A stretch of DNA of 64,000 bases, taken from IMG/VR virus record IMGVR_UViG_2687453145_000002, positions 52,166 through 116,165 of that record, one strand, 5' to 3'. Both the position numbers and the translations under genes were made by a program. Source of the DNA: a virus. Taxonomy: Duplodnaviria > Caudoviricetes. The notes beneath the pieces are model-generated. The model was not told where the DNA came from and made no database searches. It saw nothing but the letters and a program-made list of their open reading frames with translations. This document shows, one piece after another, positions 14,681 through 33,263 of the stretch (its first letter is position 1; the number at the start of each line of letters is the position of its first letter).

Positions 14681-14722
14681 TGCTTCACAGTCGAGAGACT
14701 GGGAGAGCAAGGGGGAAATCGG

Positions 14723-14845: not shown

Positions 14846-14918
14846 TGCGGAAGGATTCGGATTGGCCCGCCACTGCGCGGGCTTTTCTATGCCTGCGTGA
14901 TACGAGATTCTTAGGTAA

Positions 14919-16571: not shown

Positions 16572-16939
16572 CTGTTGGTCCTCATTAGTCTGGTTATTTC
16601 ATCCCGGCCCGCTCGGTTGTAGAGGAAGCATTCCACCTGCTTCCTGCTGCTGACCGCCTGGTCAAGGCGGTACTCCCCGAACGCCGGGCGTTTGAGTTGG
16701 TGCTGGTTGGCCAGCCGGCCAATGGCCTGGGCGCTGACCCCCAGCTCCTTGCCCAGCTCGGTGGCGCTCCAGAGCTGGCCGGCAACCCGGGGCGCTTCGA
16801 TAGGCAGGTCGAAGTGCGCCAGGATGCGGCCGATCTCGGCGAGCTTGGCCGATCGGGAAAGGGTGGGGGAGCGCACGGCGCTGACCAGCTCGTTGAGAAG
16901 CTGGCTGTCCTGGTCGATGGTCAGTTGAAGTTGTTGCAT
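16535..16939 (-). CDS. Antirepressor C-terminal-like DNA-binding protein
   Basis: Start MQQLQLT after GGAGG; WSATELGKELGVSAQAIGRLAN HTH-like segment. Confidence 0.65.
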   Translation of the reverse strand: MQQLQLTIDQDSQLLNELVSAVRSPTLSRSAKLAEIGRILAHFDLPIEAPRVAGQLWSATELGKELGVSAQAIGRLANQHQLKRPAFGEYRLDQAVSSRKQVECFLYNRAGRDEITRLMRTNRCSNSSTHVPGG

Positions 16940-16998
16940 GGCTTGGCCCTCCTGTCCCAGAGGATGGGGCGCCGATTGAGTTGAAGGAAGGGCCGCTA

Positions 16999-17079
16999 TT
17001 ACAGCAGGGTCAGCACCATCAGTGCGGCCAGGGTGTTGAGCGCCAGGATGGTGAGCCCGGCGGCCCGCTGTCTGGTCAT
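16999..17079 (-). CDS. 26-aa hydrophobic mini-protein
   Basis: ATGA overlap with the upstream gene; MTRQRAAGLTILALNTLAALMVLTLL. Confidence 0.5.
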   Translation of the reverse strand: MTRQRAAGLTILALNTLAALMVLTLL

Positions 17080-17387
17080 GCCGCCACCTCGTCAGCCAAG
17101 TGCGGCACGGGTAGGATGATGGTCTTGCCGATCTTGATGGCCAGGGCGTGCTCTGCTCTGGCGCCGGCGCTGCGCTCCCAGCCAGGCAGCATGACCAACT
17201 GATCGGCCATCTTGACCATTTCGATGCAGATGGCCATGTACTCGTGTTGCTCCAGCCCATCCGGCAGGATCGCCGGGTTTAGGGCCACATGGCCCAGGCC
17301 AAGCAGGCGGTGCGCCTCGGCATTGAAGGCGTCGCGGTTGAAGTTCGGCAGGCCTGAGATAGGCCCGGCTATGTAGATTTTCGCCAT
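17076..17387 (-). CDS. DUF4406 / nucleoside deoxyribosyltransferase-like protein
   Basis: KIYIAGPISG...LNPA...LPGWERSAGARAEH. Confidence 0.85.
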   Translation of the reverse strand: MAKIYIAGPISGLPNFNRDAFNAEAHRLLGLGHVALNPAILPDGLEQHEYMAICIEMVKMADQLVMLPGWERSAGARAEHALAIKIGKTIILPVPHLADEVAA

Positions 17388-17431
17388 AGTGAGTCCTTGA
17401 ATTGGAAGCCCCGGACTTGCCGGGGCTATGG

Positions 17432-17650
17432 TTATGCTCGCCAGCCCCGGTACCCGATAAAGCCGGGATCCATGACTTGCCTGAACGGCAGGACGGGGAG
17501 GTGGGCTATCAGGGTCTTGAGCTGGGGGTTATCGGGTTGGCTGTCGATGGTGACCCGGGCGCCGGGATTGATGAGTAGATATCGCTCCCTCACGTTCACC
17601 GCCTCTTCTAGGGTTAACCCTGTTTGGATAATTGGTTCTCTGAAGCGCAC
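17432..17650 (-). CDS. Hypothetical phage protein
   Basis: GTG start just after rdgC; fills the operon gap. Confidence 0.55.
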   Translation of the reverse strand: MRFREPIIQTGLTLEEAVNVRERYLLINPGARVTIDSQPDNPQLKTLIAHLPVLPFRQVMDPGFIGYRGWRA

Positions 17651-17654
17651 CCAT

Positions 17655-18557
17655 TCATTCCTCGCCGCCCAGAGCGGCAAGCAGGGCCGGGATGAACTGG
17701 GAGAGCTCGCCGGTCACCAGGGCGAAGTCCGCGTCCAGGCGGGCGGCCGGATCTTCACTGGTAATGTCGTCGTTCTGCTCGCGCATGTCCTCGCTGAATT
17801 TGAGGCGCTTGATGGAGAGGTCGTCGCCCAGCACAAAGCTGAGGCGCTCACCCCAGTTCAGGGCCAACTTGGTGACCAGCTTGTCGTTGGCCAGGTGATT
17901 TTTCACCTCGTCGGTCATCAGGTCTTGCTGTTTGAAGCGGGCGATCCCGCCGTGCTCCATGGCGCTGCGTAGCTCGGATTCATCCTCCAGGGTGAAAGCT
18001 GCCGGCAGGTTTCCCTCTTGCAGCCACTCGGTCATGGTGATCTCGGGTGGGTTCTTGAGCGCCACCGGCACCACCGGCAGGCTGCCAATGGACTTGCGAA
18101 GCAGAGCCAGCACATCGTCCGCCTTCTTGGCGGAGGAGGCATCGACCATCAGCAGGCCGTCGGCCGGGTTGAGCCAGGCAAAGGTGTTGGCGGTGCGGCT
18201 GAAGGCGCGAGGCAGCAGTGTGTGCAGCAGTTCCTCTTTCAGGGCCTCCTTCTCTTTCTTCTTGAGGGCGCGACCCTGCTCGTACTCGATGGCCTCCACC
18301 TTCTCTGCCAGCGCCTCCTTGATGACGGCGGTCGGCAGGATCTTGTCCTCCTTGCGGGCGCAGATGAGGATCTGGCCGGCGGCGGCATGGGTCAGGGTGC
18401 TGCCGAACTTGCCGAGTGGGCGGGTCCAGCCGAAGCGGGAAATATCCTGGCTGCCGCAGGGGGTGAAGGCGCACGCCTCCAGTTGGGTTTCCAGTTGTTC
18501 GGTGGTCAGCTCGAACGGGCGGGTGAAGCGGTAAACTTGAAGGTTTTTAAACCACAT
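17655..18557 (-). CDS. rdgC: Recombination-associated protein RdgC
   Basis: MWFKNLQVYRF...RLDADFALVTGEL signature, 300 aa. Confidence 0.95.
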   Translation of the reverse strand: MWFKNLQVYRFTRPFELTTEQLETQLEACAFTPCGSQDISRFGWTRPLGKFGSTLTHAAAGQILICARKEDKILPTAVIKEALAEKVEAIEYEQGRALKKKEKEALKEELLHTLLPRAFSRTANTFAWLNPADGLLMVDASSAKKADDVLALLRKSIGSLPVVPVALKNPPEITMTEWLQEGNLPAAFTLEDESELRSAMEHGGIARFKQQDLMTDEVKNHLANDKLVTKLALNWGERLSFVLGDDLSIKRLKFSEDMREQNDDITSEDPAARLDADFALVTGELSQFIPALLAALGGEE

Positions 18558-18576
18558 GGTCTGGGTCCTGTGTTGG

Positions 18577-18756
18577 TTAGTTGCGGGCTTTCTTGGCCTG
18601 CAGGTCGTGGATCTTCTTGGCTGCGGCCTCGGCGGTTTGCCTGTCGCAGGTGATTCCGCCTGGCAGAACGAACTTGCCGGGCTGCTTGGGATCGGGCATG
18701 ACGACACCGAGCCCAATGACTACTGCACCGCAGTAGGGGCTTTCTGTCTTTTGCAT
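18577..18756 (-). CDS. DUF1317-like small phage protein
   Basis: MQKTESPY...FVLPGG...TAEAAAKKI, 59 aa. Confidence 0.6.
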   Translation of the reverse strand: MQKTESPYCGAVVIGLGVVMPDPKQPGKFVLPGGITCDRQTAEAAAKKIHDLQAKKARN

Positions 18757-18815
18757 GGGAGTCCTATGAGTTATCCACCGTTCCTGTATGGCTGGCGGTG
18801 GATGGATTGGGGGTA

Positions 18816-19418
18816 TCAGGCCGCGCGCTTTGAGCCAATGCCGCGCACAAAGGGGATGCGAGGGGATGCACCCACCTTCATGGTGGGGAAGGCAATCAGG
18901 GCGCAACCGAAGTTGGCACCGCTCTTTCTGGTTGCGCCATCGCGCTCGTAGAACTGATAACGGCCATCCGGCTCGTAGATGATCACGTCCTCGGCCAGCA
19001 AGCGGCGCCACCATGTTGTCAGCGGCTCGTATGGCAGCAGCATCATCCCGGGCCTGCCATTGGCTTGCTGCTGGCGGGCCTGGGTGATGAACTCAGGTTT
19101 CAGGTCGAACGGCGGGTTACACCACCAGTGCTCTGGCCAGTCAAGGTTGAGGCTGTCGATGCCGATACAGACCGTGCCAGCCTGCTCGGCCTCACGAATC
19201 TGGGCTCGTACATCTTCCCGGGTGCGGTAGTCCAGCAGCTTTTCCAGCAGCAGGTGGCTGGTGAAGTAGTGGCTGCACTTGGCAGTGAGCGGCTCGGCGG
19301 CGATATCGCACTCGAAGTTGCGTCCGTAGAGCGCCTGCGCATCGGCAAAGCACTCCCAGGTGGTGGCCCAGAAGTTCTTGTCGCTGGCCGGGGTGCCGCT
19401 ATCAATCAGGATTGCCAT
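18816..19418 (-). CDS. Phage DNA N6-adenine methyltransferase (phage Dam family)
   Basis: FWAT..., FECDIAA, WCNPPF, GRYQF motifs. Confidence 0.85.
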   Translation of the reverse strand: MAILIDSGTPASDKNFWATTWECFADAQALYGRNFECDIAAEPLTAKCSHYFTSHLLLEKLLDYRTREDVRAQIREAEQAGTVCIGIDSLNLDWPEHWWCNPPFDLKPEFITQARQQQANGRPGMMLLPYEPLTTWWRRLLAEDVIIYEPDGRYQFYERDGATRKSGANFGCALIAFPTMKVGASPRIPFVRGIGSKRAA

Positions 19419-19558
19419 CAGCGCACCTCCTTGGGGTCGATGCCAAGCTGGCTGGCCAGCTGGCGGCGCTCTATCTCGTCGCGTTTTCGCTGGCGTTGTT
19501 GGAGTAGCGGTTTCGTCTTGCGGTCTTGCACCATGCCGCGGTGGCGGTAGAGGCTCAT
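19418..19558 (-). CDS. Small basic hypothetical protein
   Basis: Coupled on both sides; MSLYRHRG...RDEIERRQLASQLGID. Confidence 0.6.
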   Translation of the reverse strand: MSLYRHRGMVQDRKTKPLLQQRQRKRDEIERRQLASQLGIDPKEVR

Positions 19559-20772
19559 GCTGCCTCCTGGTGTTGCTCTTCCTGCTTGCTGGCGGCGAAC
19601 TGCTCCTCCCACAGCTTCACCTTGAGCTCGCAGGCATAGACGATCTGGCCGACCAGCTTCTGGCCGATCCCCTTCACCTTGTCCAGCTTGTTCCCCTGGT
19701 GGCTCATCACCTTGTAGAGGGTGTCGATCCCGGCCTCTTCCAGCGGCTTGATGGTGCGCGGCGGTAGGCCGCATTCATGGATGCTGACTGTCTTGGCCCA
19801 TTCGGTGCGGGGTTGCAGGTGGGGGTGGCTCTGCTCCAGCGCCTCCTGCATGAAGGCGAAGATGTCCTGCGTCATGGCATCAGGGGCCCCGGAACCATAG
19901 GGCGCCGGGTAGATGGGGTTCATCCACTGGCTCAGCATGACCGAGCAGCCGGAGCCATCGGATTTCATGGCGTGCAGCTTCCAGCTGAGGTCGTTGATGA
20001 GGTAGGGGAGGTTTGATTTCAGGCCATGATCCACCATGTATACGTCCCAGAGCGTGCCATCCTCACCCTTGTAGGTTTTGCCGAGGTGTTTGTGCCAGAT
20101 CAGCTTAGCGGCTCGGGCGCTCTCCAGCTCCATGATGACGGTGTGACGGCGCTCCAGCTCGCGATCCTGCTCGTTGATGGCGCTCAGCAGCTCACTGATA
20201 CGGCGCCCCAGCTTTAACACTTCCGCACGGTAGGAGGCTTCGTTGCTCTTGTGCTTGGCGATCGCAGTGCGCTGCTCCTCCAGCAGCTCGTTCTTCTCCT
20301 TGATGCGGCGTTTCATGCCTGCCGGATCCATGGCGTTGAGGTCGGCCAGTTGACGCTCGAGCTGGCGGGTGGCGTACTGCAGGGCGCCGTACTTGGTCTG
20401 GACATCGTTCAGGATGCGCTGGGTCTTGTAGAGCTCGTCTGCCATGGCCTCCAGCTCGGCGGCGCCTTCTTGCCGTGCTGCTGCAATGCGCTGCTCGGCT
20501 TCGGCTACCTGCTGGCGCAGCTGGCTGACCAGGGCAGCCTGGGTGAGCAGCTCGCCATCCCGGCCTTCCAGCTCGCCGATCAGGGTGTTGAACTCGTCGA
20601 TGTGGGCGTTGGCCGCCTCGCTGATCATGGTCAGGTTGGCGTTGAGCAGGGTTTCGAAGCTGCCGATGGCGGCCTTGGCCGGGCCGTCCGGCATCAGCAG
20701 GATGTTGCGGATCTGGCTGGTGAGGGTGTTCAGGGCGAGACTGGTCGCCTCGCTGGGGTTCAGCGTGGTCAT
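19555..20772 (-). CDS. Coiled-coil protein with a C-terminal RNA polymerase alpha-CTD-like domain
   Basis: Long heptad region; SIHECGLPPRTIKPLEEAGIDTL...KVKGIGQKLVGQI resembles the alpha-CTD HhH fold. Confidence 0.7.
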   Translation of the reverse strand: MTTLNPSEATSLALNTLTSQIRNILLMPDGPAKAAIGSFETLLNANLTMISEAANAHIDEFNTLIGELEGRDGELLTQAALVSQLRQQVAEAEQRIAAARQEGAAELEAMADELYKTQRILNDVQTKYGALQYATRQLERQLADLNAMDPAGMKRRIKEKNELLEEQRTAIAKHKSNEASYRAEVLKLGRRISELLSAINEQDRELERRHTVIMELESARAAKLIWHKHLGKTYKGEDGTLWDVYMVDHGLKSNLPYLINDLSWKLHAMKSDGSGCSVMLSQWMNPIYPAPYGSGAPDAMTQDIFAFMQEALEQSHPHLQPRTEWAKTVSIHECGLPPRTIKPLEEAGIDTLYKVMSHQGNKLDKVKGIGQKLVGQIVYACELKVKLWEEQFAASKQEEQHQEAA

Positions 20773-20821
20773 GGTTGGTCCTCTGGGATTGCAAAAGCCC
20801 CGTTGGCGGCGGGGCGGGTGA

Positions 20822-21910
20822 TCAGTAGTTGATGGTCAGGTGGTCGATCTTGTTGCTGGCGATGTGCTTGATGAGGTTGATGGCTTTCCCCTCATCGATC
20901 CCCAAGCCCATCAGGTCCATCAGGATGGCGTTGTTGATGGTGCGGCGGTGCTCCATGTCGGCGGAGCGCGCAGCATCCTCTGCGGCTTTCTGGCGCTGCT
21001 CGTCGGCGATGCGCTGACGTTCCTGCTCTGCTGCCCGGGCGGCGGCCTCTTCCGCCTGGCGTGCAGCGTTTGCTTCGGCCTGCTGGCGGGCCAGCTCGGC
21101 GGCTTCGGAATCACGCAGGGCCTGCTCTGCAGCCTGCTGTGCCACCTGGGCTTGGCGTTGGGCCTCCTGCTCGCGGTGCTGGGCGGCTTCACGCTCCAGG
21201 CGCTGGCGATTTTCTTCCTCCCGGCGGGCTTGCTCCGCCGCCTGCTCGACTATCAGGCGCTCGCGGTCGATGCGATCCTGTTCGGCCTGCTTCTGGCGCA
21301 GTTGCTCCAGCTCTGCCTGCTCGGATTCGTACTTCTGGCGGGCTGCCAGGGCCTCTCCGAGGCGCTTGGTTGCGAGCTCCTTGGCAACGGTCGCCTGGGG
21401 CAGCAGCTCTTGCCAGGAGTCGTCCAGGGCGTTCTGCTCGACCTCCTGCAGCATGACCTGCAAGTCGGCGGCGGCGATCTCGATGCTGGCAGAGGATCCC
21501 AGTTCATTGAGGCGGGCCAGTCGGGATTGCAGTGCTGCCACTCGGGCTTCCTCTGCCGCTTCGTACTGGGTGAGCGGGGCGCGCACCTCGTCTTTCAGGG
21601 CGTCCAGGGTGTCGCGGATCTGCTTGCGGTTGGCGTCGATGCGCTTGGGGATCTCCTTGAACTTGTCAGTTTGCTCCTTGCCGAGCCCGTCCAGGTAGGT
21701 CTTGGTGCGGGCGACAGCATGGGCGACGCTGGCGATCTCCTTGCGGCCCTTGGCGGTGGTGATGTCGGGTACCAGGCTGGTTGCCTTCTGGCGAATGTCG
21801 GCCAGCAGTTCAGCCACGCCCTGGCCCTCGGTGAACAGGGCGACGGCGGTAGTGGGTTCGATGACAACCAGTTGGGCCTGGGTGTTGTCGGTCTTGGCTT
21901 GTTCGGTCAT
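20822..21910 (-). CDS. Conserved phage coiled-coil protein (often labelled TolA-like)
   Basis: PDITTAKGRKEIASVA motif, A/E/Q/R-rich middle. Confidence 0.8.
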   Translation of the reverse strand: MTEQAKTDNTQAQLVVIEPTTAVALFTEGQGVAELLADIRQKATSLVPDITTAKGRKEIASVAHAVARTKTYLDGLGKEQTDKFKEIPKRIDANRKQIRDTLDALKDEVRAPLTQYEAAEEARVAALQSRLARLNELGSSASIEIAAADLQVMLQEVEQNALDDSWQELLPQATVAKELATKRLGEALAARQKYESEQAELEQLRQKQAEQDRIDRERLIVEQAAEQARREEENRQRLEREAAQHREQEAQRQAQVAQQAAEQALRDSEAAELARQQAEANAARQAEEAAARAAEQERQRIADEQRQKAAEDAARSADMEHRRTINNAILMDLMGLGIDEGKAINLIKHIASNKIDHLTINY

Positions 21911-21958
21911 GACGGGTCCTTAGGATTGAAAAGGCCAGCAGTGAGCGGGCCTGATGAG

Positions 21959-22936
21959 TTATTGCTGGGCGCCGTTCCCGGCACTGAGTTGCTTCTTGCG
22001 CTCGCCGGCGATCTGCTTGATACCTGCGATGATGTTCTGGTCGCCGGTTTCGTTGGCCCAGGTCCAGGCGGTGGTGTAGGCCTGCTGCCATTCGGTGGTA
22101 TCACATGCCCCCTCGATGGCGGCGCAGTGGTCGGCGTAGGCGTTGGCGTGGTCCGCCTGGGCGGGTTCGGCCATCTGCTCATGCTCCAGGGTGACCGATT
22201 CGATGCTCTGGCCGCGGATGGCATCCAGGGTGCGGCTCTTTGCCGGTGCGCCATGCTGCGGTTGGCTACCTGGGATCTCGTTGATGATGATCTCCTTGCC
22301 CTCCATCTCCTCGGCGGTGGGCTCGCTACCGATCTCCGGCCAGGCCTTGCGTAGCGCCTGCGCCTCGGTGCATTTGGCGAGCTGGGCATAGGGCCGCTTG
22401 CGCCACATGGCGTTGGGGCACTCGGTCTTGCCGCTCTGGGTGGCGTAGTTCTCCTTCCAGCGCTCCAGGGCGTGGAAGGCAACCCGCTGGCCGTTGACCA
22501 TCTTATAGACGGTGTACTTGCACCACTGCGGGTAGGTGACCTTGATCTTGGCGCTCTGGTTGTAGGGGTCTTGGAACTCTTCGGTGACATCCGGCCCGAA
22601 CACGGGTTCATCGGCCCCCGCGTAGTTGCCGGAGCGATCGGCCTGGATCCGGTACATGCCGATCCCGGGCATCGGCACATCCCGCCAGACCTTCTCTTTG
22701 CTGCGGGCATCGGTTACCTGCATGGGGACGAGGTGGACCGGCTTGAGCAGAATATCCAGGCCGCGCGCCTTACAGTAGTCGATGGCCATGACCACCGAAT
22801 CGGGGTTGGCTCCCGGGTAAATGGTGTTGCACAGGGCGTTCCAGGTCGGCTCGTCGATGCCTCGCTGGACAAGAATGGGGAACTGGGCGGCGAAGTTATC
22901 GGCCGCCTGCTGTTTGAGGCTGGTGATGTTGCTCAT
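21959..22936 (-). CDS. bet: Red-beta/RecT-family single-strand annealing protein
   Basis: YCKARGLD, GIGMYRIQADRSG, MWRKRPYAQLAKCTEAQALRKAWP. Confidence 0.9.
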   Translation of the reverse strand: MSNITSLKQQAADNFAAQFPILVQRGIDEPTWNALCNTIYPGANPDSVVMAIDYCKARGLDILLKPVHLVPMQVTDARSKEKVWRDVPMPGIGMYRIQADRSGNYAGADEPVFGPDVTEEFQDPYNQSAKIKVTYPQWCKYTVYKMVNGQRVAFHALERWKENYATQSGKTECPNAMWRKRPYAQLAKCTEAQALRKAWPEIGSEPTAEEMEGKEIIINEIPGSQPQHGAPAKSRTLDAIRGQSIESVTLEHEQMAEPAQADHANAYADHCAAIEGACDTTEWQQAYTTAWTWANETGDQNIIAGIKQIAGERKKQLSAGNGAQQ

Positions 22937-24652: not shown

Positions 24653-24654
24653 GG

Positions 24655-24846
24655 CTAGAGCTCCTGGGCAAGTCGCTGAGCACGCCGTTCGTGATACTCC
24701 TCGATGGCACGGCGGGTGGCGGCCTTGGTCTTGGCCATCCGCTTTTGCTCGGCGGATGGGGCGGCGTCTACGTGGTACTTGCGGCGGGTGGGTGGCACCA
24801 TTGCGCCGCGAAAGCCCATCAGCTGGGCTTCGGTCAGTGGTTTCAT
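24655..24846 (-). CDS. Small basic hypothetical protein
   Basis: CAGGACCCAG RBS; first gene after a terminator. Confidence 0.7.
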   Translation of the reverse strand: MKPLTEAQLMGFRGAMVPPTRRKYHVDAAPSAEQKRMAKTKAATRRAIEEYHERRAQRLAQEL

Positions 24847-24873
24847 GGTCTGGGTCCTGTGGTTGTAAAAACG

Positions 24874-24898
24874 AAAAAGCCCAGCAGTTGCTGGGCTT
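24874..24898 (-). terminator. Intrinsic terminator after the Sel1 gene
   Basis: AAGCCCAGCA/TGCTGGGCTT stem with a U-tract on the minus strand. Confidence 0.75.
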
Positions 24899-24920
24899 GG
24901 TCGGATGGTCTAAGTGGTGA

Positions 24921-25808
24921 CTACTTGGGTTGGTATTTCTCGAAGTAGCTTGCCGCCAACTCTTGGCCTTTGGCTAGTTGATCTGGGGTGAGTCGCTTCG
25001 CGGCATTATCACGTGCATCGTGGGAGCTCCGCTCGCCATTTGCTGCAGCAACAGAATACCAAGCGTATGACTTCACATAATCCTGCGGTACCCCTTCACC
25101 TCGCGCATATCCTGCACCTAAGTTGTATTGCGCATCTGGTAAACCTTGCTCTGCGGCTTTTCGATACCAAGAGAAAGCCTTTTTGAAGTCTTGCCGCACA
25201 CCTCGACCTTGGTAATGTATCACCCCGAGATTGTACTGCGCTTCGGCAACACCTTGTTCGGCGGCCTTGCTGTACCATATCAAGGCTTTGCTAAAATCCT
25301 GTTTTACTCCTTGGCCCTGATCGTACATTACGCCAATGTTGTATTGCGCTGAAGGAAAGCCTTGCTGGGCCGCCTTGTTATACCAGTCGAACGCCAGTTT
25401 TTTATCCTGCACCACAGTAGTGCCACTGGCATACATCCACCCAAGCTGGTTTTGTGCGGCAATCAAACCAAGGTCGGCTGCTTTTTTGAACCAGAACACG
25501 GCGGTTTTGTTATTTTGCGGAACGCCTCGGCCATCTTCATACATACCGCCTAAAAAGAACTGTGAAGTTGCATGGTTTTGTTCGGCTGCTTTTTGGTACC
25601 AAAATACTGCTTGCTTATCATCCTGAGGTACACCGTCACCAATGTCATAGCTAAACCCAAGGCGATATTGGTCGTCCCTACTGCCAGCCTCGGCTAGCTT
25701 CATAATCTTGGCGATGTCAGTATTATCTGGCTCTGCCTGCGCTACTGGCATAACCAGCAACGTCAACCCCAGCAACACCGCTCCTATCCAACCCCCTACT
25801 CGATTCAT
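24921..25808 (-). CDS. Exported Sel1-like repeat protein (moron)
   Basis: Signal peptide ending AQA; repeated AQYNLG.MY..G.GV.QD...A..WY.KAAEQG; lower GC. Confidence 0.92.
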   Translation of the reverse strand: MNRVGGWIGAVLLGLTLLVMPVAQAEPDNTDIAKIMKLAEAGSRDDQYRLGFSYDIGDGVPQDDKQAVFWYQKAAEQNHATSQFFLGGMYEDGRGVPQNNKTAVFWFKKAADLGLIAAQNQLGWMYASGTTVVQDKKLAFDWYNKAAQQGFPSAQYNIGVMYDQGQGVKQDFSKALIWYSKAAEQGVAEAQYNLGVIHYQGRGVRQDFKKAFSWYRKAAEQGLPDAQYNLGAGYARGEGVPQDYVKSYAWYSVAAANGERSSHDARDNAAKRLTPDQLAKGQELAASYFEKYQPK

Positions 25809-26010
25809 AACCCCTCCTTGTTTCGGAAGGGGGCATTATGGATCTGTTTGGGGCGGCTGTCAGCCTGCAACCCCCTGATGCAAGGGGCTCCAGGCTGGCC
25901 ACTGTTGCCAGTGGCCTGCGTTCACGTTCACGCACCGCCTTCCGGATTGAACGGGGTATCGGCGCATCCCTACCGGCATCGGGATTCGTGGTTGTGAGCC
26001 GGTTCCAGGT

Positions 26011-26022
26011 TGTTAAAGAGCA
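26011..26022 (-). promoter_or_regulatory. boxA antitermination element
   Basis: TGCTCTTTAACA on the minus strand equals the rrn/nut boxA consensus. Confidence 0.75.
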
Positions 26023-26121
26023 GGCCCAGCCGAATTTGGCGTGAGCGAAGCCAAAGCATCCTTGCGGTGCTTGAGAAAGAGGCTTTGGCTACGGCGCTAT
26101 GAGGGAAGCGCCAGACCCGGG

Positions 26122-26376
26122 TCAGATGGCGTTGCGGTGGAACTCGGCCCGCCAGTGGAGTAGGGCGCGGCATTTCATGGCGGTCATGGTGCGCACCTTG
26201 GCAGACTGGGCGGTGCGGGCTGCGACGAGCTGGTGCCGCTCGGTGGCCATCATGGCAACCGTCAAGCGTTGCTTGATGGCCCGGCGGCGGGCGGCGTTAC
26301 CGTTCAGGCGGTCGGCGATGGCAGTTACAATCTGGTCTGCATGTTTCGCGGCCCTGGAAAAAATGCGCTTGGTCAT
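26122..26376 (-). CDS. First pL gene, arginine-rich, possible N-like antiterminator
   Basis: AGGAG SD; NAARRRAIKQR motif; position after pL; an in-frame ATG also exists at 26433. Confidence 0.55.
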   Translation of the reverse strand: MTKRIFSRAAKHADQIVTAIADRLNGNAARRRAIKQRLTVAMMATERHQLVAARTAQSAKVRTMTAMKCRALLHWRAEFHRNAI

Positions 26377-26384
26377 GGTACATT
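26376..26384 (+). promoter_or_regulatory. Extended -10 promoter for the candidate sRNA
   Basis: TGGTACATT fits TGnTAnnnT; TGGAAA 18 bp upstream. Confidence 0.55.
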
Positions 26385-26390
26385 CACTCC

Positions 26391-26530
26391 TGTTGGCGAG
26401 TTGGTCCTCGCTAATTCCCAGTTGATTCGTCATGCTGGGTCCTGATTGCTGGGGTTGGTCCCTCGGCTTTCACTGACCGGGTGGTACCCGGTCCTTCGAA
26501 GCCCGCCTTGTGCGGGCTTTGTCGTTCTTA
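26391..26530 (+). ncRNA. Candidate multi-target anti-RBS sRNA (may extend to ~26615)
   Basis: Plus-strand hairpins with G.U pairs; GGTCC motifs at 26403, 26438, 26457, 26490 and 26572; terminator-like stem 26499-26530; complementary to 13 early-gene RBSs. Confidence 0.65.
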
Positions 26531-26665
26531 CGCGCTGGTCAGGCGCTTCACTGCTGCCCTGGTTGGGGCTGGGTCCTGTTGCTGGGTGGTACTCAATTCT
26601 TTGCTGGCTTTTTACTCCGCCAGAGCGGGAGGTTTGCCGGTATTGCCTCCGGCCTACTGATGAGT

Positions 26666-26741
26666 GATTGTTTTCTCGAACAAGATGAAGGTTAATATTC
26701 GCGAACCTGCCAGTCAATAGAAAATGTTCGAGATAACGAAT
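26666..26741 (-). promoter_or_regulatory. pL promoter and three OL operators
   Basis: TTGACT-17-TAACCT (26717-26689); GTTCG-N6-CGAAC-like sites at 26666, 26691 and 26726. Confidence 0.75.
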
Positions 26742-26824
26742 TTTTTAGAGTGAGCGCCATTGCTGTCGATCGAGAGATGCAAAAAAGCCCGCATAAAGCG
26801 GGCTCTTAGTGAAGATTGGTGCTG

Positions 26825-27046
26825 TTATTTCAGGTAGATATTGATGGCTATCGCTACACCGAGACCAAGAAATGCTGAGGTGTAGAGGCCCGTATCAAAG
26901 ATGGCGTGAAACGCAAAGGGGGAGGCGCATAAGCCAATAATCATGGCTAATGTCACGTTTTTGTTTAATCGCTCATCTTCCTTATGCCTCGCTGCCCTTG
27001 CTTCTGCCGCCATCTGTTTCATCATTTCACGTTCGCCTTTTTCCAT
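26825..27046 (-). CDS. Two-TM membrane protein co-transcribed with cI
   Basis: AAGGAG SD directly after cI (rex-like slot); terminator-like stem at 26781-26805. Confidence 0.75.
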   Translation of the reverse strand: MEKGEREMMKQMAAEARAARHKEDERLNKNVTLAMIIGLCASPFAFHAIFDTGLYTSAFLGLGVAIAINIYLK

Positions 27047-27051
27047 GGCGG

Positions 27052-27666
27052 TTACTCCTTCACATCTCTACGCAGTTCAACCATTCGGCCATAAATCAGC
27101 GCCTCTTTGACTGGGATGACACCAAGACGCGGATCATCGGTGACCAATGTAATACCTGATAGGCCATCCAGAGCCTTCAGTAAGCGCTCCTGATTGTTGC
27201 TATCCAGTCGCACCAGAACGATATCGTTATGGCGTGGTTCCCGATCTGCAAGGTCAATGACGCAGATGTCACCACTCTTGATGCCAGAACCGATAAGGTT
27301 GTCATCGTTGGCAACCACGCCAATCAGATGCCCATTGGCATCACTGAATAGGTGGCGGCCGCTATCCAAGGTTGAAAGAGCATCGGTCGGGTGTTTGCCG
27401 AGATCTGACATTTCCCAGACTGGCACCTTGCCAAGGTTAATGTCGGAGACATAGGTGCCACTTTCTTTGCCGGTGTAGAGCCAGAGAGGATCGCAACCGA
27501 GCGCTTTGGCGATAGAAAGCAGACTGCTGACTCGCAAATCCTTGAGCGGGTCAGATAAGAGAACGGAGACCACAGCTTTGCTGACCCCAGACCTGCGTAC
27601 CAGGTCAGCTTGCTTCCAGCCCCGCTCTTTGAGCATGTATTCCAGTCGGTCTCTAAAAGAGGTCAT
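27052..27666 (-). CDS. cI: CI-like repressor, HTH plus degenerate S24 domain
   Basis: MTSFRDRL...QADLVRRSGVS...IAKALGCDPLWLYTG; C-terminal GDICVID...IYGRMVE. Confidence 0.9.
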   Translation of the reverse strand: MTSFRDRLEYMLKERGWKQADLVRRSGVSKAVVSVLLSDPLKDLRVSSLLSIAKALGCDPLWLYTGKESGTYVSDINLGKVPVWEMSDLGKHPTDALSTLDSGRHLFSDANGHLIGVVANDDNLIGSGIKSGDICVIDLADREPRHNDIVLVRLDSNNQERLLKALDGLSGITLVTDDPRLGVIPVKEALIYGRMVELRRDVKE

Positions 27667-27675
27667 GTTGATCTC

Positions 27676-27763
27676 GTTCGCATAATAAAACCATTTTCTA
27701 TTTTCACCTATTGCATGTGCTAAATGGCGATCGCTTGACTTGTTCGGTTTTAAGAATAAAAAT
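27676..27763 (+). promoter_or_regulatory. pR promoter and OR operators
   Basis: TTGACT at 27735 with an A-rich -10; operators GTTCGCATAATAAAAC (27676) and GTTCGGTTTTAAGAAT (27742). Confidence 0.65.
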
Positions 27764-27798
27764 GCCCTTGTATTGTCAGACACCACAGGACCCGACCA

Positions 27799-28014
27799 AT
27801 GAAGAAGCAAGACGTTATCAGCCATTTCGGCAACATGGCCCGCGCCATGAAAGCGATCGGTATCGCTCGTAGCGTGGCCGTGACGTGGGGAGATATTGTC
27901 CCGGCACAGCATGCCGTCAGCTTTGTTATCGCCAGCAACGGCGAGCTGCGGCTGGGGCTGGAGGATTACCCCCTGCTCAAGGAGCAAGACCATTCTACCC
28001 AGCAGGCCGCCTGA
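27799..28014 (+). CDS. cro: Cro-like repressor
   Basis: MKKQDVISHFG...AIGIARSVAVTWGDIVP; divergent from cI. Confidence 0.88.
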   Translation: MKKQDVISHFGNMARAMKAIGIARSVAVTWGDIVPAQHAVSFVIASNGELRLGLEDYPLLKEQDHSTQQAA

Positions 28015-28055
28015 CCACCGGCCAGCTTTTCTACCCAACATAGAGGACCAACCCC

Positions 28056-28445
28056 ATGGGAAGAGTATCGCTCCCAGATCATGAAAATATGAGCACCCGC
28101 TCCCCGCTGAAAGTGCGCGGCACCCCAGCCCAGCGCCAGGTATGGCAGGAAGTAGGCGCCGAGTGTGGCATGACCGAAACCGCATTTGCCCGCACCTCGC
28201 TGCTGATCCTGCTCCAGGCCATATCTCAGCACGAGCCCACCATATTGGCGAGGGCCGTTAAACGGGCCAATCGGAGCTTGCTGGAGCAGGGTTTTCCGCC
28301 CGTGACCGTCGAGGAGATCCTGGAGGGCTCCGGCCTGCCCGAGCGCGGCCTGCTCCAGTTCAGCCAAGAAGACGAGGCCGCCTACAACGAGGAGCGCCCG
28401 CTGCGCCCCCTGCAAAAACTCATCAACTTCGTCCTCGGGAGGTAA
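28056..28445 (+). CDS. Regulator in the cII position
   Basis: Synteny after cro; N-terminus RHH-like. Confidence 0.6.
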   Translation: MGRVSLPDHENMSTRSPLKVRGTPAQRQVWQEVGAECGMTETAFARTSLLILLQAISQHEPTILARAVKRANRSLLEQGFPPVTVEEILEGSGLPERGLLQFSQEDEAAYNEERPLRPLQKLINFVLGR

Positions 28446-28448
28446 CCC

Positions 28449-28667
28449 ATGACCATGCAATTACGTCCGCCGCGCCCGGCATCCCAGCACGTCAGCGATC
28501 GCGACAACATCATCCTGAAGTCGGTCATGCACGAGCTGGCCCTAGCCCTCGACGAGCCGCTGATCTCGACCGCTCACGCAGCCGGCACCGACCGCCAGGC
28601 CGTCCGCCTGGCCCGCGAGCTGGAAGCCCGCACCCTGGAGCGTGCCGAAGCACAACCCAGCGCATAA
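28449..28667 (+). CDS. Hypothetical phage protein
   Basis: GGAGGT SD, operon context. Confidence 0.7.
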   Translation: MTMQLRPPRPASQHVSDRDNIILKSVMHELALALDEPLISTAHAAGTDRQAVRLARELEARTLERAEAQPSA

Positions 28668-28720
28668 GCAGCACCTGCCCGCCTCACCAGCGGGCAGCTT
28701 AAACACCACAGGACCCAACA

Positions 28721-28876
28721 ATGACCAATTCAACCATGGCCCATGGGGGCCACCCCTTGCTGAACGACCTCAACCACTGCCCACTGTGCGGCAGTGATCT
28801 GCAGTCCGGCACCAATGACCGCGCCTACGAGTGCCCCACCTGTGAGTACACCGAGCAGGAGGTGGCTCATGGTTAA
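28721..28876 (+). CDS. Small zinc-ribbon protein (51 aa)
   Basis: CPLC...CPTC; CAGGACCCAA RBS. Confidence 0.65.
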   Translation: MTNSTMAHGGHPLLNDLNHCPLCGSDLQSGTNDRAYECPTCEYTEQEVAHG

Positions 28877-29000
28877 CACCTCATCCGTTGCCACCTGGGA
28901 GCTCTATGAGCTCAAGAAGCGGGAATTGCAAGCAATGGGGTTATCCCAGCGTGAGTACGAATTGGCTGTGCGCCGATTGGCTGATGAATTGGAGGTGTGA
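28869..29000 (+). CDS. Small hypothetical protein (43 aa)
   Basis: GGAGGT SD; YELKKRELQAMGLSQREYELAVRRLADELEV. Confidence 0.65.
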   Translation: MVNTSSVATWELYELKKRELQAMGLSQREYELAVRRLADELEV

Positions 29001-29001
29001 G

Positions 29002-29835
29002 ATGGCGGCGCTTTTGAAGTTTCCAGATAGACGCCCACAGAGTGCCCCACAGGAGGTTCGTGTGGCAGACCTTGATGATGGCTATACCCGCATTGCCAAT
29101 GAGCTCTACGAGGCGCTGATTGGCGCTGATTTGACCAAGCACCAGTTCAAGGTCGTACTGGCGGTGATCCGCAAGACCTATGGCTTTAACCAGACCCATG
29201 ATCGCATCACCAATGGGCAGATAGCCGAGATGACCGGTTTGCCGGAGACCCGAGTTTGCACCGCCAAAAACCAATTATTGGAGATGGGAATACTGGTCAA
29301 CAAAGGGCGAAAAATAGGACCCAACAAGGTACTTTCTGAGTGGGACTTTGACGCTCCCCGAAACAGGGAAAAGCTACCCGAAACAGGGTATAAAAATTTC
29401 CCCGAAACAGGGAATCGAGTTTCCCCGAAACAGGGACACACAAAAGACACTATTCAAAAGACAGTAAAGACAACTACTGATGGGGCATCAGCTTGCGCTG
29501 AACCCCCAGCAGCAACCCCCGAAAAGCGACCAGTGAAAAATACACCATACCAGGCGATCCTGGATGCCTATCACGACATCCTGCCGGAGATGCCAGCCAT
29601 CCGTGAGCTGACCGATTCTCGCAAAACCAAAATCAGGAACTTCTGGACCAAGTTCAAGTTCGACGAGACCCGCTGGCGCGCCTACTTGGATTTCATCGCC
29701 AAGAACTGCCGCTGGATGTGCGAGAGCCGCCCGCGCCGCGATGGCGAGTCGGCCTGGAAGCCGAAGAACTTGGATTTTTTGGTGACCGAGAGGTGTTATC
29801 TGGGCGTGCGGGAGGGGCGGTTCAATGACGAGTGA
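29002..29835 (+). CDS. Lambda O-like replication initiator
   Basis: VADLDDGYTRIANEL...RKTYGFNQ; internal iterons. Confidence 0.92.
   Translation: MAALLKFPDRRPQSAPQEVRVADLDDGYTRIANELYEALIGADLTKHQFKVVLAVIRKTYGFNQTHDRITNGQIAEMTGLPETRVCTAKNQLLEMGILVNKGRKIGPNKVLSEWDFDAPRNREKLPETGYKNFPETGNRVSPKQGHTKDTIQKTVKTTTDGASACAEPPAATPEKRPVKNTPYQAILDAYHDILPEMPAIRELTDSRKTKIRNFWTKFKFDETRWRAYLDFIAKNCRWMCESRPRRDGESAWKPKNLDFLVTERCYLGVREGRFNDE
29357..29435 (+). repeat. Replication origin iterons, CCCGAAACAGGG x4
   Basis: Copies at 29357, 29377, 29401 and 29424, followed by an A-rich tract. Confidence 0.9.
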
Positions 29836-31237
29836 TGCAATGGGGTTTGTGCCCCCTCACAACTTCGAGGCAGAGCAGTCTGTGCTGGGCGGGCTGATGC
29901 TGCGGGCTGACTCGTTCCACGACTTGGGCCTGTCTGAACGCGATTTTTACAGTCGCCCGCACCAGATCATTTTCGGGGCGATCTCCCAACTGATCGCCGC
30001 CAAGCAGCCGGTTGACATCATGACAGTGCAGCACCGTATCGAGCAGGACGGCGAGCTCGATGTTGCCGGCGGGTTTGCCTACCTAGTCGAGATCGCCAAG
30101 AACACCCCAAGCGCGGCGAACATCGTGACCTATGGGGGGATGGTGCGTAGCGCTGCAGAGCGGCGCTTCGCTGTTGCCAAGCTGCATGACTGTATCGCGG
30201 CGATGATGGAGCCTGGATTCAGCAACACCGATGAGCGGTTCGCTGCGATGGGGTCGCTGTTGTCTGAGGTCGATGCCAAGCGCTCTGGGGGTGTGACCGG
30301 GATTGCGGTACACGCCAGCGAAATCGTGCGGGACTGGTGTGATGAGCTGGATCGCCGGGCAAGCCGCCGCCCAGGGGAGATGACCGGTTATGCCACGGGG
30401 ATCGCGTCCTTGGATGAGTTGCTCTACCCAGGTGGGATCAGCCCTACGGCGCTGGTGTGTATCGGCGCTCGACCGAAGATGGGCAAGACCACGCTGATGG
30501 CGAGTCTGTGTAACCACACGTCGCTGGTCAAGAAGCTCCCTGTGGTTGGTTTTTCGCTGGAGATGACACGGGGTGAGCTGTTCGAGGTCATGGTATCGCA
30601 AGCGTCCGGTGTCTCCGGCAAGCATCTGAAATCAATGTCTGACCAGTGCAAGATGGACAAGGCCTACGCTGTTGCCGCAGAGCTTGGTAACTCCAAACTC
30701 CATATCGCAGATCTGCCTGGGCTGACTGTGCACCAGGTGGTGCGTGAGAGTCGCCGGCTGAAGCGACAGTTCGGTCAGCTCGGGCTGATCGCTGTTGACT
30801 ACCTGACGCTGATGACTGCCGACAAGGCTGAGCGTAACGATCTGGCTTACGGCGCGATAACCAAGGCGCTCAAGATGCTAGCCAAGGAGATGGGTTGCCC
30901 GGTGATCCTGCTGACTCAGCTCAATCGAGGGCTGGAGCAGCGTGCAGACAAACGCCCGGTTCCCAGCGACAGCCGTGACACCGGCCAGATCGAGCAGGAT
31001 TGCGATGTGTGGATCGGCTGTTATCGCGATGAGGTCTATAACGAGGCTTCCCCGATGGCAGGAGTCATGGAGTTGCTGGTCAGGCTCAACCGAGGCGGTA
31101 AGACGGGAACCGCTTACTGCCAGTTCCATGATGGGGTGATCTCAAATATCGACCAGCAAGAGGTTGCGCGCATGGCACATGCTGCAGAAGTGGAACGCAG
31201 CAAATCCAAGCCAGCGAAAGGGGGGTGGGATGGCTGA
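29825..31237 (+). CDS. dnaB: DnaB-like replicative helicase
   Basis: PPHNFEAEQSVLG, GARPKMGKT, VDYL, QLNR, SRDTGQIEQDCD. Confidence 0.95.
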   Translation: MTSDAMGFVPPHNFEAEQSVLGGLMLRADSFHDLGLSERDFYSRPHQIIFGAISQLIAAKQPVDIMTVQHRIEQDGELDVAGGFAYLVEIAKNTPSAANIVTYGGMVRSAAERRFAVAKLHDCIAAMMEPGFSNTDERFAAMGSLLSEVDAKRSGGVTGIAVHASEIVRDWCDELDRRASRRPGEMTGYATGIASLDELLYPGGISPTALVCIGARPKMGKTTLMASLCNHTSLVKKLPVVGFSLEMTRGELFEVMVSQASGVSGKHLKSMSDQCKMDKAYAVAAELGNSKLHIADLPGLTVHQVVRESRRLKRQFGQLGLIAVDYLTLMTADKAERNDLAYGAITKALKMLAKEMGCPVILLTQLNRGLEQRADKRPVPSDSRDTGQIEQDCDVWIGCYRDEVYNEASPMAGVMELLVRLNRGGKTGTAYCQFHDGVISNIDQQEVARMAHAAEVERSKSKPAKGGWDG

Positions 31238-31541
31238 TTTTTTCAATCCTGACGTGAGTGCCGCGGTCGTGGCCGCGAAATTCTGCCGGGTGGTGATCTA
31301 TCCCGCCGTGCGGGGCTGGTGTGGGGAGCGGATGCAGCTCGAGGTGGCCGACGAGATCGATGCGTTGGGTCACACCGACCAGCAGCGTGGCGCAGGGCAT
31401 TGGCTGGCGCAAAGCACGACGCCGGAGCGAGTGGCGGAGGAGGCTGCACGGCTGAGAGCCGCGCCAGTGCTGGTGTTGCGGTGTGATGCTTCGTTTGGGG
31501 CTGTGGATAACTTCGAAGGGGAGGGCCTTGCCAACCAGTGA
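31230..31541 (+). CDS. Hypothetical phage protein
   Basis: Overlaps the dnaB end. Confidence 0.6.
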   Translation: MADFFNPDVSAAVVAAKFCRVVIYPAVRGWCGERMQLEVADEIDALGHTDQQRGAGHWLAQSTTPERVAEEAARLRAAPVLVLRCDASFGAVDNFEGEGLANQ

Positions 31542-31617
31542 CACAAGGGGTACCGCGCCGTACCATTGCCAGTGCCGGACCTAGACCACCCGGCTGTTTA
31601 ACCAAAGGACCTAGACC

Positions 31618-31911
31618 ATGACCAAACCGCATACCCGAGATCTATCCATCGCGACCCAGTTGGGGCGCGTGATATCCATCATGAGCGACGGCAAGGCCCG
31701 CACCCTGCGCGACATCGAGCGCGAGTGCTGGAGCCGCTACGGCCACGCTGACACCCAGGCCGCCATCAGCGCCAGACTGCGTGAAGTTTGCTGCTACGGC
31801 TGGGTGAAGCATTCCAGCAATCAGGTCATCGACGGCAAGCAGGTGTGGCATTACCGCATCGCGCTGCCTCCCACCACCGAGGCCGTAGCGGCTAAGGCGG
31901 TGGCAGCATGA
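31618..31911 (+). CDS. Winged-HTH-like hypothetical protein
   Basis: MSDGKARTLRDI...AISARLRE. Confidence 0.7.
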   Translation: MTKPHTRDLSIATQLGRVISIMSDGKARTLRDIERECWSRYGHADTQAAISARLREVCCYGWVKHSSNQVIDGKQVWHYRIALPPTTEAVAAKAVAA

Positions 31912-32087
31912 GACTGACCCACGCTATCGCGGCTGTGCTGTTGGCAGCTACAGGCCAGCCCGCTCGCCTCAATCCGAACGACTTCATCCCCGGCTATGGA
32001 TTCTGCATCCCCAACCCGCGCAATGACCGGGCTGCACAGCGTCAGCGTGCAGCCGCCAAGCGCCGCAACAAGTCCAAGCGGGGGTGA
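31908..32087 (+). CDS. Small basic hypothetical protein (59 aa)
   Basis: ATGA overlap; QRAAAKRRNK tail. Confidence 0.55.
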   Translation: MRLTHAIAAVLLAATGQPARLNPNDFIPGYGFCIPNPRNDRAAQRQRAAAKRRNKSKRG

Positions 32088-32089
32088 GC

Positions 32090-32530
32090 ATGAGCTACCC
32101 CAAGTATTTTCTGCGCAGCCCCGATATCCGGGCCCGCGCCAGCCAGTTGGTCGCCAGCCTGCCGGTTGATCAGGACAAGCCGCTGGTTATCGAAATCAAG
32201 GAGCTGACCCGCAGCCTGGCTCAGAACGCTCTGTTCTGGGCCGTCATGACCGACATCGCCGAGCAGGTCAACTGGCACGGCCGCAAGCTCTCCAAGGAGG
32301 ACTGGAAGCACGTTCTCTCCGCCGCCCTGTACCAGCAGGACGTGGTGCCGAACATCGACGGCAATGGCTTCGTGGTGCTGGGTAAGTCCACTTCCAAGAT
32401 GACCGTGCGCGAGATGCGCGATCTCATTGAGCTGGCCCAATCCTTCGGCGCCCAGCAGGGCGTGAAGTTCGGGGATGAATCCCGCCGAGGTTTCGACTGG
32501 GTGGCGGCCTACGGGAGGGCTGCAGCATGA
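32090..32530 (+). CDS. ninB: NinB recombination protein
   Basis: TRSLAQNALFWA..DIAEQVNWHG..WKHV..STSKMTVREM. Confidence 0.92.
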   Translation: MSYPKYFLRSPDIRARASQLVASLPVDQDKPLVIEIKELTRSLAQNALFWAVMTDIAEQVNWHGRKLSKEDWKHVLSAALYQQDVVPNIDGNGFVVLGKSTSKMTVREMRDLIELAQSFGAQQGVKFGDESRRGFDWVAAYGRAAA

Positions 32531-32844
32531 GCAAGACCAAGGCTGATAAGCAGTGGTTGGACGATGTGAGCTCTCTGTGCTGCATTGCTTGCCGAAATGC
32601 TGGCCTGGGGGCGAGCCTCGCCGAAATTCACCATGTGCGCTCTGGCGCCGGGATGGCGCAGCGCTCTGCTCACACCCAGGTGCTGCCTCTTTGCCCTCGC
32701 CATCATCGCGCCTGCTACCCCACCGGCTTCCACGCCGCACCGCTCACATGGCAGCAGGAGCACGGCAGCGAGGAGGCCCTGCTGGAGCAGGTAGCCAGAG
32801 AAGTCACCGAACTGCGCAAGAACACCATCGGGAGGGCGGCGTGA
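32527..32844 (+). CDS. Ref/DUF968-like HNH zinc nuclease
   Basis: CIAC, EIHHVR, LPLCPRHH. Confidence 0.8.
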   Translation: MSKTKADKQWLDDVSSLCCIACRNAGLGASLAEIHHVRSGAGMAQRSAHTQVLPLCPRHHRACYPTGFHAAPLTWQQEHGSEEALLEQVAREVTELRKNTIGRAA

Positions 32845-33263
32845 TCCATCTATCCGCCCTCGATGCGGCCCGGTTGCTGGGTAGCAGCTCGAAGGTCAGG
32901 AGCGCAGCCAACCAGGTGCGCAAGGCGCAGCAGGTCACCTCCCTGCACGACAAGGTGCTGACCAAGCTGGTCGGCCTTCCTGACCCCGCCACCGAGCTGT
33001 TGTTTCACCCCAAGCGCAAATGGCGCTTCGACTACGCCTGGCCCACCCGCATGATCGCCATTGAGGTCCACGGCGGGATCCACTCCGGCGGCCGGCACAC
33101 CCGGGGGAGGGGGTTCGTAGAGGACCGGGCCAAGATGAACGAAGCCACCTTGCTCGGGTGGACCGTGCTGGAAGTTACCCCAGAACACATCAAATCCGGC
33201 CAGTTGCGCGCCTGGCTGCTCGCCGCCTTCAATCAGGACCCAGACCAGAGGACCAAACTATGA
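32841..33263 (+). CDS. PD-(D/E)xK endonuclease (resolvase position)
   Basis: FHPKRKWRFDYAWP...AIEVHGG...KMNEATLLGWTVL. Confidence 0.8.
   Translation: MIHLSALDAARLLGSSSKVRSAANQVRKAQQVTSLHDKVLTKLVGLPDPATELLFHPKRKWRFDYAWPTRMIAIEVHGGIHSGGRHTRGRGFVEDRAKMNEATLLGWTVLEVTPEHIKSGQLRAWLLAAFNQDPDQRTKL

Follow-up and report, generated by a model that had tools for sequence, protein, structure and literature searches.

Early timing in temperate lambdoid phages is thought to be mainly transcriptional, depending on repressors and on antitermination by N and Q. The present study concerns a hexamer, AGGACC, that stands just before the start codons of early genes in a 64,000-nucleotide stretch of viral DNA (IMG/VR record IMGVR_UViG_2687453145_000002, positions 52,166 to 116,165). 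This stretch, referred to here as the window, makes up the 64 kb at the right-hand end of a virus record 116 kb long. A ribosome motif common to nearly all independently translated early units would alter the mainly transcriptional picture. Such a motif may be a 'standard part' for translation that is specific to the lineage, or else the visible half of a collective post-transcriptional control. The motif pattern was confirmed, and it holds across many phages. The explanation proposed for it is that AGGACC serves as the ribosome-binding site in a standard early initiation cassette peculiar to one lambdoid (P22-like) lineage of Aeromonas prophages, an account that we consider the most likely of those weighed here, though about equally likely to be right or wrong. 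Initiation regions that carry the motif are called heads below.

Several described systems resemble this one in part. In CsrA/RsmA sites, GGA occupies a short hairpin loop, and targets usually have at least two such sites. The P22 sar and P1 c4 transcripts are phage antisense RNAs that mask ribosome-binding sites. In phage T4, as described in a portion of one report (PMC3014915), RegB cleaves GGAG in the Shine-Dalgarno sites of early genes, its target consensus being GGAG followed by an A-rich tail, and RegA is a repressor that binds some 30 initiation regions. Short conserved boundary (linker) sequences have been proposed to serve module exchange among lambdoid phages, according to part of another report (PMC3029335).

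The locus was compared with each of these. Heads resemble the weak, 4-nt AGGA class of Shine-Dalgarno sequence in their complementarity to the 16S rRNA tail, in lying 5-8 nt from the ATG and in having real genes behind them; they differ in that the CC, which cannot pair with the tail, is as conserved as the core, and in that use is confined to one temporal class and one phage lineage. As with sar and c4, a terminator-ended antisense RNA opposite the initiation region of a regulator would fit a feature at 26497-26531 (plus strand), but here the terminator is known from sequence and the transcript is a candidate, and there would be no precedent for its acting in trans on some 12 heads. With RegB and RegA the locus shares the concept of a common sequence in early Shine-Dalgarno regions for collective post-transcriptional control (PMC3014915, in the portion cited above). 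It differs in being AGGACC in a C/A-rich context, not GGAG or AU-rich, in belonging to a temperate lambdoid phage, and in being known from sequence alone.

Prophages, reference sequences and controls

The record carries a tandem pair of related P22-like (lambdoid) prophages, phage A and phage B. Phage A, which ends at about 14.8 kb, is represented in the window by its right end, at roughly positions 1-15100. Phage B occupies about 15112-64000 and begins with an integrase gene (15112-16392, minus strand) followed by xis. Each has a 426-amino acid (aa) integrase, an AGGACC-bearing early region and near-identical head genes. In phage B the leftward early operon extends to about 26.4 kb. Rightward, after the immunity region, come cro (27799), replication genes, nin genes and the Q-position gene (33260), and beyond these lie umuDC-like genes, lysis genes and virion genes. 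The nearest named phage is Aeromonas phage phiARM81mr, and related prophages are present in A. popoffii, A. aquatica and A. tecta.

Gene content was assessed by comparing 67 window proteins with PHROGs and 21 early proteins with Pfam. The GenBank annotation of phiARM81mr supplied independent gene starts. As the record contains no host genes, the host controls consisted of 402 kb of A. popoffii sequence together with 200 kb each of two other Aeromonas genomes (802 kb in total). Phage phiARM81ld, resident in the same host strain as phiARM81mr, served as an unrelated-phage control. A search of the published literature by title and abstract, the scope of which did not include the original phiARM81 description, found nothing on an AGGACC motif in phage early genes among the matches listed.

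Position of AGGACC relative to start codons

AGGACC is not over-represented in the window, where 35 copies were observed and 31.2 expected, yet its placement is unusual. Placement was measured as the fraction of copies that have an ATG within 4-9 nt on their 3′ side. In phage B this applied to 12 of the 18 copies in the early region and to none of the 11 in the late region. The corresponding counts were 12/23 early and 2/13 late for phage A, and 13/24 early and 1/8 late for phiARM81mr. In the host samples, near-ATG copies numbered 6/41 in A. popoffii and 3/37 and 0/23 in the other two, or 9/101 overall. The early share in phage B departs from the host rate with a binomial P of 7.5e-7; Fisher tests gave P = 1.4e-4 against the host and 3.9e-4 against the late region. 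In phiARM81ld none of six copies was near an ATG, and the motif was found at 0/61 annotated genes. It is apparent that the motif is early-specific, as the original prediction had proposed, and that AGGACC is not equally common before late or host genes, being rare in both.

Twelve early genes of phage B firmly carry the motif (AGGACC in ten, AGGACT in two), 3-6 nt 5′ of the ATG. Their sites are as follows.

16577-16582, minus strand: AGGACC, xis head; 5 nt before the ATG at 16571; excisionase PHROG match
17392-17397, minus strand: AGGACT; 4 nt before the ATG at 17387 of a 103-aa DUF4406 / deoxyribosyltransferase-like gene
18564-18569, minus strand: AGGACC, rdgC head; 6 nt before the ATG at 18557; Pfam RdgC, E = 7.5e-126
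18760-18765, minus strand: AGGACT; 3 nt before the ATG at 18756 of a 59-aa open reading frame (ORF); equivalent site in phiARM81mr
20777-20782, minus strand: AGGACC; 4 nt before the ATG at 20772 of a 405-aa gene; GC hairpin and T run upstream
21915-21920, minus strand: AGGACC; 4 nt before the ATG at 21910 of a 362-aa gene; GC hairpin and T run upstream
24853-24858, minus strand: AGGACC; 6 nt before the ATG at 24846 of a 63-aa ORF; directly after a terminator-like hairpin (24898-24877)
27787-27792, plus strand: AGGACC, cro head; 6 nt before the ATG at 27799; Pfam P22_Cro
28044-28049, plus strand: AGGACC; 6 nt before the ATG at 28056 of a 129-aa gene in the cII position; hairpin upstream
28710-28715, plus strand: AGGACC; 5 nt before the ATG at 28721 of a 51-aa four-Cys zinc-ribbon protein; hairpin upstream
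31606-31611, plus strand: AGGACC; 6 nt before the ATG at 31618 of a 97-aa gene; within a conserved island (31560-31646)
33235-33240 and 33249-33254, plus strand: two AGGACC copies, Q-position head; ATG at 33260; inside the 3′ end of the preceding gene

The head genes are backed by PHROG and Pfam matches and by GenBank starts. All 14 motif sites cited in the original prediction were found where it had placed them, on the coding strand, and its count of thirteen motif-bearing early genes falls to the 12 listed here. The gene that drops out is that at 16943, where the supposed variant is AGGAGGGCC, a canonical AGGAGG Shine-Dalgarno sequence. A copy absent from the earlier list occupies 26438-26443 and is separated by 4 nt from an ATG at 26433. 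Pfam matches for the 51-aa zinc ribbon, at E values up to 10, were to generic zinc-ribbon families only, with no Com family among them, and a Protein Atlas look-up of the 129-aa protein was uninformative.

A further AGGACC, at 33121-33126 (plus strand), stands 8 nt before an ATG at 33135 that opens a 42-aa frame inside the gene preceding Q. It is conserved in phage A, phiARM81mr and three further relatives, which may be mere coding conservation of the enclosing gene. Two late genes, at 44746 and 59981 (plus strand), have AGGACA within an A/C-rich leader. The A/C-plus-AGGAC style is not strictly early-only; the CC form is.

Cluster heads and coupled genes

According to the GenBank starts of phiARM81mr, AGGACY precedes 9 of the 14 early genes that follow a gap of at least 12 nt, compared with 2 of the 24 early genes that are coupled (P = 4.8e-4); GGAG or GAGG was found in 20 of those 24. 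Among late genes after a gap the motif was seen in one of nine (P = 0.03). The proposal that the motif marks the heads of translationally coupled clusters is borne out by this difference. One of the five motif-less gap genes, ARM81mr_p26, appears to be mis-started in the GenBank record: its start at 15735 has no ribosome site, while an in-frame ATG at 15702 has AGGACC and matches the 28056 gene. Gene finders and start callers used on these prophages should accept AGGACC heads, as the choice between these two starts illustrates.

Three genes had been named as lacking the motif. For the cI-linked membrane gene and the Sel1 moron this was found to be so, both having canonical AAGGAG-type sites; cI was judged on the annotated CI start of phiARM81mr only, which has no recognisable Shine-Dalgarno sequence. 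The Sel1-repeat gene occupies a low-GC insertion (24921-25808, minus strand) and has its own promoter-like site as well as its canonical ribosome site.

A GC hairpin was found upstream at 9 of 13 phage B sites (the 12 firm heads and 26433), in several cases with a short T run. These hairpins look like terminators. In a scan with a terminator consensus, the only one of them to score was that at 24898-24877.

Sequence context and pairing with 16S rRNA

A sequence logo of 41 unique heads shows an A/C-rich, nearly G-free stretch from -9 to -2, then AGGACC, then C or A, then A, and then a C-rich spacer. The hexamer is separated from the ATG by 6 nt in 20 of these heads, 5 nt in 13, 4 nt in seven and 3 nt in one, and the coding sequences that follow often open with ATG ACC. 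Between the AGGA core and the ATG there are 5-8 nt, and A. popoffii has a canonical 16S tail. The two properties that define a Shine-Dalgarno sequence, complementarity to the 16S tail and a suitable distance before a genuine start codon, are both present, although pairing is weak. The description of the site as 'non-standard' was thus an overstatement, in that AGGA is the normal core at the usual distance.

At phiARM81mr starts, the predicted duplex with the 16S tail was -4.9 kcal/mol for 12 AGGACY heads versus -10.05 kcal/mol for 24 early GGAG sites; seven late GGAG sites had a mean of -8.0 kcal/mol. The fraction of A+C was 0.72 in the AGGACY heads and 0.50 in the early GGAG sites, and the predicted probability of being unpaired, from -18 to +3, was 0.64 versus 0.41 (P = 8e-6). 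These predictions support the view that the motif acts as a weak Shine-Dalgarno core and that the platform around it is unstructured.

An alternative pairing with 16S rRNA was considered and rejected. The gene contains no GGTCCT, and pairing of the spacer with a strand of helix 45 fits one head only and needs the helix to melt.

The initiation cassette can be described as follows. The hexamer stands before genes that need de novo recruitment of ribosomes, these being first in their coupled clusters and usually preceded by a GC hairpin. Its AGGA pairs only weakly with the canonical 16S tail, and the surrounding leader, some 20 nt long, is rich in A and C, poor in G and predicted to be single-stranded; the coupled genes downstream use strong GGAG sites. 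Initiation at heads would rely on accessibility and not on strong pairing, and the outcome would probably be a uniform and modest translation rate for all early clusters. The cassette may have been kept alike through common descent and recombination at module boundaries, the CC being either a frozen part of it or a sequence read by some factor. Several mosaic joints, given below with the linker proposal, fall at the cassette or next to it.

Distribution in the phage lineage

Conservation in related phages had been suggested as a check on the pattern, which proved to be present not only in phage A and phiARM81mr but also in virus loci anchored on NinB. AGGACC-ATG heads were found on the operon strand in 47 of 72 such loci, typically at 5-7 per 12 kb. 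The positive loci comprise 44 of 45 close relatives and three loci with a different NinB allele; the other 24 loci, all distant, have none. Motif use is a trait of the phage lineage and not of the host, given this distribution, the lack of the motif at phiARM81ld genes and the few host copies near an ATG.

The pL leader and the opposite strand

Copies of the motif also occur upstream of the N-like gene of phage B, in the region for which the following features were noted.

26370-26600, minus strand: pL leader, a conserved block (about 230 nt) that precedes the N-like gene
26572-26577, 26490-26495, 26457-26462 (GGGACC), 26438-26443 and 26403-26408, minus strand: motif copies in the pL leader, in sense orientation, within about 175 nt
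26497-26531, plus strand: invariant GC hairpin (26497-26521) with a T-rich tail, intrinsic-terminator-like, antisense to the pL leader
38175-38200, plus strand: near copy (26 nt) of the plus-strand hairpin, just upstream of the holin gene

Of 46 Aeromonas genomes, 18 contain the leader, with 76-90% identity, and it was also found in further virus records; among five low-GC relatives tested it was present in four, the fifth having only a 26-nt match. The two copies of the plus-strand hairpin are each about 96% identical in relatives. The N-like protein (84 aa; 26122-26376, minus strand) has an internal arginine-rich stretch. Its conserved start, at 26376, has an AGGAG site. The longest ORF opens 57 nt farther upstream, with the ATG at 26433, which is missing in most of 23 aligned relatives. 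The leader copies at 26457 and 26403 are partly inside small hairpin loops, and the hairpin at 26403-26420 shows some compensatory and A-C (antisense G-U) patterns. Two classes of head, CAGGACCCAG and GAGGACCAAC, agree over 10-11 nt with copies in the leader.

A plus-strand RNA ending at about 26531 would be a candidate antisense of the N-like start, and would carry three GGUCCU anti-tags and one GGUCCC. A consensus scan for sigma-70-like promoters gave none that was convincing for such an RNA. Antisense duplex energies, which are a crude test, did not separate heads (-36.9 kcal/mol) from other early starts (-36.1 kcal/mol; P = 0.92). All of the records tested have the leader, the heads and the late hairpin together, so that they allow no test of correlation.

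The leader also contains a string of short GC hairpins, one of which, with a GCGC stem of 4 bp and a loop of 7 nt, resembles a P22-type boxB. Similar loops are found in hairpins ahead of the 28056, 28721 and 31618 genes. In the window, no Rfam family reached its gathering threshold, and the segment 26000-28800 gave chance-level matches only. Two further candidates in this region were rejected. A plus-strand ORF at 26099-26425 might have accounted for the plus-strand terminator, but diversity by codon position favours the minus-strand N-like gene. Hairpins with ACCA loops were considered as a specific feature; they exceed shuffled sequences by 2-2.5-fold on the early sense strand, but also by about 2-fold on the late sense strand and about 5-fold on the left antisense strand, the cluster in the pL leader being the exception to this lack of specificity.

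Conservation of the whole hexamer

The observations gathered in this section weigh against the initiation cassette as an explanation of the motif. GGTCCT is absent from host 16S rRNA, so the hexamer as a whole has no complement there and its CC cannot pair with the tail. If weak pairing in an A/C context were all that mattered, AGGACA, AGGAAC and AGGAAA would be permitted as well. Before early ATGs, AGGACA was found in none of phage B, phage A and phiARM81mr, and AGGAAC was found once, in phiARM81mr; their near-absence counts against such a requirement.

Orthologues of five genes, selected by protein and not by motif, point the same way, with AGGACC kept in 122 of 139 heads that have a start codon. 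It was found in 18 of 20 cro orthologues (the remaining two gave no upstream sequence), 30/30 heads for the 28056 gene, 25/31 for the 28721 gene, 20/20 with a start codon for the 31618 gene (seven more matches had none) and 29/40 for the Q-position gene. The rare variants were AGGATC, TGGACC, AGGACT and AGGAGG-ACT. Nucleotide diversity was calculated for the two sets free of spacer indels. These were the 28056 set, with 22 unique sequences, and the 31618 set, with 12. Across the hexamer it was 0.00 in both, compared with upstream values of 0.3-0.7 in the former and 0-0.61 in the latter.

The motif also contains GGWCC, which is the lowest or second-lowest 5-mer pair in the three Aeromonas samples (observed/expected 0.48-0.52 under a Markov model and 0.25 at zero order). 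GGACC and GGTCC are both depleted on coding sense strands, which points to a pressure at the DNA level, and the depletion across the genus suggests long-standing restriction or repair in Aeromonas. Phage B shares this avoidance, with 32 GGWCC in the late region versus 83 expected. Its early region has 30, of which 13 are within 25 nt of a head ATG, 12 of them being copies of the motif; away from heads there are 17 versus 55 expected. The motif is retained despite an avoidance of GGWCC common to phage and host.

Finally, since the ATG at 26433 is mostly missing and the start at 26376 is conserved, the AGGACC copies in the pL leader are not start sites. The invariance of the hexamer, the retention of GGWCC and the leader copies together suggest that something reads the whole hexamer.

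Alternative explanations

The original prediction had interpreted the motif as an address label for a shared post-transcriptional regulator. Formulated for this lineage, AGGACC with its 3′ C/A-A would be the operator of a lineage-specific trans factor, either an RNA-binding protein or an antisense RNA opposite the pL leader, and all early translational units would be coordinately repressed or activated; this we hold as a tentative possibility. It accommodates what the cassette does not. The hexamer is conserved whole within variable flanks, is nearly absent from host start regions (9/101 copies near an ATG in 802 kb) and is kept against GGWCC avoidance, and five copies are crowded into the leader, where they match two classes of head. 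The plus-strand hairpin is invariant and recurs before the holin gene, the 26403-26420 hairpin has its compensatory and antisense G-U patterns, and T4 RegB and RegA provide a precedent (PMC3014915, in part). On the other hand, no regulator was demonstrated. No RegA or RegB homologue was found among the 67 window proteins (PHROGs) or the 21 early proteins (Pfam), comparisons that do not cover remote folds, nor was any RNA-binding or RNase family detected among the early proteins by either route. No sigma-70-like promoter was found for the antisense RNA and the duplex energies did not single out heads; the leader copies are nearly fixed but the flanks of the heads are variable, with no co-variation of pairing beyond about 8 nt; and the invariable co-occurrence of leader, heads and late hairpin offers no variation to correlate. 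AGGACC may be an early-gene tag, but no reader of it was found. A more elaborate form, which we regard as rather doubtful, would make AGGACC an orthogonal tag, chosen from sequence nearly lacking in Aeromonas, with a lineage-specific reader, leader copies as decoys and a regulon that switches all early units; candidate readers are the antisense RNA opposite the pL leader or a small early protein.

The remaining explanations are less probable. The cassette could have been kept mainly as short boundary homology for module exchange by phage Exo and RecT, a role that we judge unlikely. As in the linker proposal (PMC3029335, in part), a short conserved sequence stands at module joints and breakpoints occur there. 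Homology between phage B and phage A or phiARM81mr breaks at the motif or its ATG at 17387, 18555, 20778, 24858 and 27787, and exonuclease and RecT-like genes are present (PHROG). An 89-nt island at 31560-31646 (plus strand) comprises a hairpin, the motif and ten initial codons. It has about 90% identity to its counterparts in phage A and three Aeromonas prophages, yet its flanks are unrelated and it joins ORFs of differing length (97, 253, 41, 47 and 202 aa). Coupled boundaries that lack the motif are breakpoints too (32087-32093, 32522-32532 and 32840-32846), so the placement of breakpoints may not be motif-specific. Moreover, boundary homology would not require the fixed register with the start codon, the strand specificity or the early restriction seen here, and at 6 nt the core, which is less variable than its flanks, is too short for homology. 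Binding of host CsrA to the GGA of heads, with repression of early translation, had been offered as an alternative in the original prediction and is, in our view, quite improbable. GGA does overlie the Shine-Dalgarno position at every site, there are two copies at the Q head and five or six GGA in the pL leader, and multi-site CsrA targets have a similar arrangement. The support from GGA is nevertheless trivial, as the GGAG of coupled and late genes contains it too. Most heads have a single GGA, two copies being found only at Q, and they are predicted to be unpaired, their hairpins lying upstream of the motif and not around it; the leader copies at 26457 and 26403 are the exception to this lack of a hairpin loop. 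The conserved CC is not known to be part of the preference of CsrA, and the motif follows phage lineage and not host, being absent from phiARM81ld in the same strain. A role at the level of DNA, with GGWCC overlaid on the AGGA core and read by a methyltransferase or restriction system, is the least probable of all. It would draw on the rarity of GGWCC in the three Aeromonas genomes, on its depletion in both forms from coding strands and on the fact that AGGACC is the sole overlap of AGGA with GGWCC. It gives no known reason for a fixed distance to start codons, the sense strand always has A and never T, and no GGWCC enzyme was identified in this analysis.

Other features of the window

A second low-GC insertion lies at 37360-38080 (plus strand), where an AT-rich ORF is situated between the umuDC-like genes and the holin gene. 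Phage A contains a 3643-aa ORF (406-11337, plus strand) with PHROG matches to DNA methyltransferase-like and virion proteins. A 690-aa relative of its N-terminal part is encoded in phage B at 59981-62053.

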